Source: a phage. Taken from it: 623 bases of DNA. Of this stretch, positions 1 through 623 are shown piece after piece (the first letter of the stretch is position 1; every line of letters begins with the position of its first letter). Where the stretch lies: sequence record DQ006820.1; one strand, 5' to 3'. The notes under the pieces are model-generated. The model saw only the letters and a program-made list of their open reading frames with translations, was not told the DNA's origin and ran no database searches. A program made the position numbers and the translations under genes.

Positions 1-20
1 TACTGAGTATGAGAGGACAT
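1..20 (+). other. Partial 5' untranslated leader of a Qbeta-like ssRNA phage genome (cDNA), immediately upstream of the maturation-protein start codon
   Basis: Stops in the CDS frame's two sister frames (tga at 4-6, taa at 26-28) and no start before 21. The string tactgagtat gagaggacat atg matches my recollection of the Qbeta leader just before the A2 AUG. The extreme 5' end (about 40 nt by my recollection, including the GGG start and terminal hairpin) would lie outside the window. Confidence 0.75.
11..17 (+). promoter_or_regulatory. Shine-Dalgarno-like ribosome-binding site for the A2 start codon (gagagga, core GAGG at 13-16)
   Basis: Purine-rich GAGGA at 13-17 lies 3-4 nt upstream of the ATG at 21-23. 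The spacer is shorter than the usual optimum, consistent with a weak, regulated initiation site. Confidence 0.55.
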
Positions 21-623
21 ATGCCTAAATTACCGCGTGGTCTGCGTTTCGGAGCCGATAATGAAATTCTTAATGATTTTCAGGAGCTCTGGTTTCCAGA
101 TCTCTTTATCGAATCTTCCGACACGCACCCGTGGTACACACTGAAAGGTCGTGTGTTGAATGCCCATCTTGATGATCGCCTACCTAATGTAAGCGGCCGT
201 CAGATCAGGCGTACTCCACATCGTGCTACCGTCCCGATTGCCTCTTCAGGCCTTCGTCCGGTAACAACCGTTCAGTATGATCCTACAGCACTATCGTTCT
301 TATTGAACGCTCGTGTTGATTGGGATTTCGGTAATGGCGATAGTGCGAACCTTGTCATTAATGACTTTCTGTTTCGCACCTTTGCACCTAAGGAGTTCGA
401 TTTCTCGAATTCCTTAGTTCCTCGTTATACCCAGGCCTTCTCCGCTTTTAATGCCAAGTATGGCACTATGATCGGTGAAGGGCTCGAGACTATAAAATAT
501 CTCGGGCTTTTACTGCGCAGACTGCGTGAGGGTTACCGCGCTGTTAAGCGTGGCGATTTACGTGCTCTTCGCAGGGTTATCCAATCTTACCATAACGGTA
601 AATGGAAACCGGCTCTGCTGGAA
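21..623 (+). CDS. A2: Maturation/lysis protein A2 of a Qbeta-like levivirus, N-terminal 201 codons; 3'-partial, ORF continues beyond the window
   Basis: ATG at 21-23 followed by 201 sense codons with no stop to the window end (603 nt, in frame). Both other + frames are repeatedly interrupted (e.g. tga 142-144 and 157-159 in frame +1; taa 26-28, 59-61 in frame +2). The translation MPKLPRGLRFGADNEILNDFQELWFPDLFIESSDTHPWYTLKGRVLNAHLDDRLPNV...YGTMIGEGLETIKYLGLLLRRLREGYRAVKRGDLRALRRVIQSYHNGKWKP is recognised from memory as Qbeta A2. No alignment was run. Confidence 0.93.
   Translation, partial: MPKLPRGLRFGADNEILNDFQELWFPDLFIESSDTHPWYTLKGRVLNAHLDDRLPNVSGRQIRRTPHRATVPIASSGLRPVTTVQYDPTALSFLLNARVDWDFGNGDSANLVINDFLFRTFAPKEFDFSNSLVPRYTQAFSAFNAKYGTMIGEGLETIKYLGLLLRRLREGYRAVKRGDLRALRRVIQSYHNGKWKPALLE

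Follow-up and report, generated by a model that had tools for sequence, protein, structure and literature searches.

Structures of the maturation protein A2 of Qβ are available for the virion and for the complex with MurA (5VLZ, 5VM7, 5MNT). The β-region of this protein binds the F-pilus and MurA, and its C-terminal α-region anchors it to the capsid and to the genomic RNA (PMC12856241). Without its C-terminal region A2 fails to enter the capsid, and deletion of Arg420 alone lowered plaque formation more than 1000-fold, which is the level of a construct without any A2 (PMC12856241).

The window analysed here (the whole stretch of DNA, 623 bases) represents the 5′ end of the genome of a Qβ-like phage (Qubevirus durum) and consists of the end of the 5′ UTR and of codons 1-201 of A2. 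One long open reading frame of 201 codons starts with the ATG at position 21 and is still open where the window ends, and on the minus strand we found short mechanical reading frames only and nothing notable. When the window was compared with 50,697 phage records by megablast, 31 matches were obtained, all of which belong to the Qβ group (Qubevirus). In 19 of these 31 matches, all from complete or near-complete records, the alignment spans window positions 2-621 at 93.2-96.1% identity, and all of them fall under an annotation as A2 or maturation protein. The A2 start of the matching records aligns with window position 21 and A2 has a length of 420 codons there. The nearest record is strain HL4-9 (FJ483841), which shares 96.1% nucleotide identity with the window over positions 2-621. 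The translation of the window matched the Pfam family Phage_mat-A (PF03863) with E = 5e-40 and 138 bits (cutoff 25). Here, residues 36-198 correspond to profile positions 20-213 of 446 and the match ends at residue 198; for the complete HL4-9 protein, it extends through residue 420. Identity and collinearity as well as the profile match place the gene among the A2 genes of Qubevirus durum (genogroup III). The motif (T/A)-T-A-G-N-L-W-L-E-F-R-Y-G at residues 198-210 is not present as written, since window residues 198-201 are A-L-L-E. After re-insertion of one A these four residues become A-T-A-G, and the remaining part of the motif lies outside the window.

The coordinates of the features are summarized in Table 1. 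For the purine-rich GAGAGGA, a putative role in ribosome binding can be proposed from its position alone. The window starts at the same genome position as position 1 of AY099114.1 (Qβ nt 41 in the numbering of AB971354), and this common start might reflect a shared primer or a shared trimming convention.

Table 1. Features of the 623-base window and their coordinates
Feature	Position	Strand	Remarks
5′ UTR end, Qβ-like	1..20	+	purine-rich GAGAGGA at 11-17 a few bases before the A2 start codon
A2 maturation/lysis gene, codons 1-198 (M1-A198)	21..614	+	in frame and collinear with the references, 0 indels; assigned by identity, Pfam and dN/dS
Site of the missing A	614..615	+	in the references, the A that starts the Thr199 codon (ACT) lies between these bases
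CTG CTG GAA (L-L-E) in the frame of the window	615..623	+	frame of the references: (A)CT GCT GGA A.. = T-A-G-(N/K)
A for T	622..622	+	A2 frame: third base of the Gly201 codon (GGT>GGA, synonymous); or a second deletion has removed the T
Start of the 22-nt block CTACTGCTGGTAATCTCTGGCT	613..623	+	longest invariant run in A2 (15 sequences); broken twice by the window

For the interior of the window, dN/dS values of 0.04-0.19 were obtained in comparison with ten relatives. Relative to HL4-9, 21 of the 24 coding differences are located at third codon positions, and transitions account for 23 of the 25 total differences. Codons 1-198 involve neither stops nor indels, and the relaxed selection that would characterize a defective genome was not observed. 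This strong purifying selection in the interior indicates that the source lineage had a working A2. At the amino acid level, the window differs from HL4-9 by G58S, K193N and T198A (window positions 192 and 596 noted). G58S is also present in FrSangria, K193N in Qβ proper and T198A in Qβ and FrMerlot. Since all three states are found in other strains, there is no private amino acid change before residue 199. Judged from its sequence, the window represents a distinct natural Qβ-like strain.

The irregularity is confined to the 3′ edge. Window positions 597-623 read GGT AAA TGG AAA CCG GCT CTG CTG GAA (G-K-W-K-P-A-L-L-E) in frame with the ATG at 21, and the KWKPALLE terminus reported in the first-pass annotation is therefore borne out by the letters and by the translation. 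At the same site, Qβ (AY099114, AB971354) reads GGT AAG TGG AAA CCG GCT ACT GCT GGT AAT CTC TGG CTT GAA TTT, which is translated to G-K-W-K-P-A-T-A-G-N-L-W-L-E-F. The reference that the annotation had given (KWKPATAGNLWLEF; GCT ACT GCT GGT AAT) is exact for Qβ itself, as can be seen from both of these records. Our reference set at this site comprised 15 genogroup III sequences (12 Qβ-like GenBank records, 1 IMG/VR contig, M11 and MX1), and all 15 of them share the pattern TGG AAR CCN RCT ACT GCT GGT AAT CTC TGG CT (W-K-P-(A/T)-T-A-G-N-L-W). Compared with every single reference, one A is missing from the window between positions 614 and 615, and position 622 is an A instead of a T. This is the combination of one deleted A and one T-to-A change that had been proposed; a reference with the same letters as the window, which had been named as counterevidence, is not among the 15. 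An alternative reading of these letters is that two single bases (that A and the T of GGT) have been deleted, and the two readings are indistinguishable because the window ends at 623, one base short of telling them apart.

All 19 near-full-length BLAST matches align window positions 2-621 with 621 record bases and involve exactly one gap each. In the comparison with 13 close relatives, the gap after 614 is the sole indel in 623 bases and it is located nine bases from the end. The deletion-bearing letters of the window are GGCTCTGCTGGAA, and the two forms of the site at 600-623 are GCTACTGCTGG with the A and GCTCTGCTGGAA without it. As the sole indel, which hits positions that are invariant in every relative, the lesion is not chance variation.

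Both 3′ anomalies fall inside the block CTACTGCTGGTAATCTCTGGCT, which corresponds to nt 654-675 of HL4-9 (FJ483841). The next longest invariant run in A2 of the 15 genogroup III sequences is 9 nt long. When six whole genogroup III genomes were considered, this 22-nt block was again the longest invariant run, ahead of three runs of 20 nt. Its invariance includes M11 and MX1, which are just ~74-75% identical to the window over the aligned part. The block contains seven consecutive invariant third codon positions; for A2 as a whole, 23% of the third positions are invariant. In genogroup IV (FI), the block is not kept at the nucleotide level and the residues there are S-A-S-D/N. A local consensus fold pairs the block with GGCGATTTACGTGC about 60 nt upstream, every pair of which is invariant, so that the fold shows no covariation. 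A genome-wide duplex scan identified no long-range RNA partner of the block that was consistent across the six genomes. This pattern of conservation suggests a possible RNA-level constraint in addition to that on the protein motif TAGNLW, or at least an ideal primer or probe site for group III. Being invariant in all genomes examined, the block could serve as a genogroup III-specific primer or probe site. A real indel combined with a second change at this particular place would be surprising.

In connection with MX1, one database entry deserves mention. The locus tags of the RefSeq record NC_001890.1 ('Enterobacteria phage Qbeta, complete genome') are those of MX1 (MX1p1 to MX1p4). This record is just 75% identical to the window over the aligned part (359-621) and shows the same length and the same match as AF059242. 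The label of its A-protein ('head maturation protease') is at odds with the known role of A2.

Next to the lesion itself, the distribution of all differences that are specific for the window is informative. In an alignment of the window with 13 close references, we defined private sites as positions at which the 13 references are unanimous and the window alone differs. There are four of them: base 1, position 584 (synonymous CAG>CAA), the gap after 614 and base 622. Base 1 is a T in the window and a C in 13 of the 13 close references. Between bases 2 and 613 there is one private difference and this one is synonymous; the two 3′ anomalies stand 2 and 9 bases before the end of the sequence. Three of the four private differences are located in 11 terminal columns (P ~2e-5 under uniform placement) and two of the four in the last ten columns (P ~1.5e-3), both probabilities being post hoc values that indicate the scale only. 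Considered alongside the 3′ anomalies, the aberrant base 1 suggests that neither end of the record is reliable.

From these sequence data, the apparent frameshift most probably is an artefact at the end of the record, and the window is otherwise an ordinary part of the A2 gene of a Qβ-like strain. The source would be the genome of a natural Qβ-like phage whose A2 is functional. One A would have been dropped nine bases before the end of the record, and the viral RNA itself would not have the frameshift. Errors are common towards the ends of reads and contigs, and poor quality at the end of a read, a contig tip lacking support or inaccurate trimming may have been the cause. The true letters most likely are GCT ACT GCT GG(A/T) AAT..., which would encode P-A-T-A-G-N. 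The A at 622 may either reflect a genuine silent variant (GGT>GGA) or be another base that was miscalled at the terminus.

When one A is re-inserted after 614, the sequence reads GCT ACT GCT GGA A.. (K-W-K-P-A-T-A-G) and the difference at 622 becomes a synonymous third-position change. Since this repair by one A leaves a type of difference that is typical of the rest of the window, a single dropped base is the most economical account. The overall picture is that of a sequence-end artefact: the anomalies sit at the termini, the interior is clean, invariant positions are hit and a minimal repair restores the gene. Two observations count against a technical error or make it more demanding. The missing A is located outside a homopolymer (GCT-A-CTG) and is not a classic pyrosequencing or nanopore indel, and the T>A exchange at 622 requires that either another error or a rare genuine mutation has occurred in a block that is invariant elsewhere. 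If the window had been cut out of a longer record at an arbitrary point, the end-effect argument would be weaker but the arguments from conservation and repair would hold. The alignments directly show that the lesion is present in the letters, that it is terminal and unique, that the site is conserved and that one base repairs it, and from this we infer a technical cause.

The first-pass annotation had offered three outcomes without ranking them (a sequencing or assembly error, a defective genome, a genuinely divergent local sequence). Among these, the error is favoured by our data, and the defective genome and the local divergence are not. Its suggestion that A2 is truly shifted or truncated found no support; the position at the end, the conserved block and the one-base repair point to an error.

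A real deletion, which means that a Qβ-like RNA with a -1 frameshift was present in the sample, appears unlikely. Such an RNA would be either defective or, with still lower probability, part of a viable lineage in which the frame is restored. In the former case, the product would consist of the first 198 residues of A2 followed by a short tail that is read out of frame, and the genome would be kept by complementation. In the latter, less likely case, a viable lineage would restore the frame just downstream and T-A-G-N would be replaced by L-L-E.

The defective form of this alternative, which is an improbable one, may be specified further. Here, the window would derive from a minority variant or from a single cloned cDNA that truly lacks the A. 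The corresponding molecule would be non-infectious on its own and would persist briefly or by complementation. RNA phage populations do contain lethal mutants, and taken literally the letters of the window say just this. We modelled the positions of the resulting stops by joining the downstream sequence of HL4-9 to the window. With one deletion and one substitution, a stop would be reached at codon 223 and A2 would comprise ~222 instead of 420 amino acids with the tail ...ALLEISGLNSVMVLCLSSMTSKTSC before the stop; with two deletions, the stop is predicted at codon 205, which would leave ~204 instead of 420 amino acids with the tail ...ALLESLA. The product would thus be ~204-222 amino acids long, and a frameshifted A2 would lose Phage_mat-A positions 214-446, which is over half the domain. 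However, the chance that a real lesion falls into the last 10 bases of a 623-base fragment is only ~1.6%, base 1 is aberrant too, and selection is not relaxed in the rest of the gene. Moreover, truncation of A2 abolishes infectivity (PMC12856241). As C-terminal deletions of A2 have this consequence, a frameshifted genome could not be the consensus sequence of a propagating phage.

Genuine local divergence with restoration of the frame downstream, for instance by three single-base deletions (A, T, T), is very unlikely. In this scenario L-L-E would replace T-A-G-N, the sequence would rejoin ...LWLEFRYG and a viable A2 that is one residue shorter would result. The window stops before any restoration of the frame could be seen, and the S-A-S-D/N of genogroup IV (FI) indicates that the residues at this site are not absolutely fixed. 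However, three indels would have to arise independently within 12 bases of the genome's most conserved nucleotide block, L-L-E would be a radical replacement of [TS]-A-[GS]-[ND], and no other indel is present over the whole 420-codon gene among the 12 Qβ-like strains. Re-insertion of one base is the simpler explanation.

We attach an equally small probability to a chimeric end, in which the last 9-12 bases would originate from a recombination or deletion junction, from an adapter or vector remnant, or from a primer with a synthesis deletion. Bases of foreign origin or from primers can occur at the ends of amplicons and contigs, but the last nine bases of the window are collinear with Qβ except for the missing A and one mismatch. 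A recombination junction or chimera was rejected, since no terminal k-mer of at least 8 bases was found elsewhere on either strand of three full genomes. In the literature searched, there was no published primer that matches either terminus of the window, and our search of a plasmid collection gave no construct that matches the window. Programmed ribosomal frameshifting or another recoding signal in A2 is hardly conceivable, as A2 runs through this site as one uninterrupted reading frame of 420-421 codons in 15 of 15 relatives, there is no slippery heptamer at 609-620 (CCGGCTCTGCTG) and no Rfam family was matched on either strand of the window at E <= 1.

Additional copies of the strain were searched for in several collections. 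In IMG/VR, no copy was recovered with the exact deletion-bearing 20-mer, with an indel-tolerant pattern or with a strain-specific 20-mer. Similarly, DNA patterns and protein-guided scans did not detect a copy of the window strain in IMG/VR, the JGI metagenomes or the GTDB genomes. The sole Qβ-like contig in the IMG/VR and JGI scans was IMGVR_UViG_3300019216_000421, which is identical to Ga0179939_1057709 (2,890 nt). It shares 91% protein and 92% nucleotide identity with the window and carries a normal 420-codon A2 with ACT GCT GGT AAT at the site. When 5.8 billion proteins were searched with the protein encoded by the window (21-623), there were 0 matches at E <= 1e-20 and 595 candidates with short shared words. 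Close relatives of A2 seem to be absent from this collection or unavailable in it. An exact match to the last 20 bases of the window (GGAAACCGGCTCTGCTGGAA) was detected on the minus strand of a Deltaproteobacteria MAG (JBLMWR010000835.1, 157-176), and we rejected it as a coincidence. The flanks of this match are GC-rich and unrelated to the window, and about one chance match is expected in ~1.2e12 positions.

These results have consequences for the annotation of the record. If the last nine bases are taken at face value, an annotator would call A2 a pseudogene or the phage defective. For quality control, the last ~10 bases and base 1 should be trimmed or corrected, and the record should be annotated as a normal partial A2 of a distinct Qβ-like strain.

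When the window is compared with known systems, three cases are relevant. The first of them are the engineered C-terminal truncations of Qβ A2 (Kajitani, Hakoshima and Inokuchi 2026, PMC12856241). With a genuine lesion, the A2 encoded by the window would resemble these constructs in that its C-terminal part is missing. However, the engineered truncations remove 1-6 residues and are already non-infectious (PMC12856241), whereas the lesion of the window would remove 222 residues (199-420). The second case is the intact A2 of Qβ as represented by HL4-9 (FJ483841), with which the window shares the position of the start codon, the first 198 codons and membership of the Phage_mat-A family. Compared with HL4-9, the Thr199 codon of the window is short of its A, Gly201 is encoded by GGA instead of GGT, and there are 23 further substitutions, nearly all of which are synonymous transitions. 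The third case are terminal base-calling and assembly errors. The window has in common with them the dropout of one base and the mismatch in the last ten bases, the mismatch at base 1, the clean interior and the abrupt stop, but it differs from them in that its dropped base is located outside a homopolymer.
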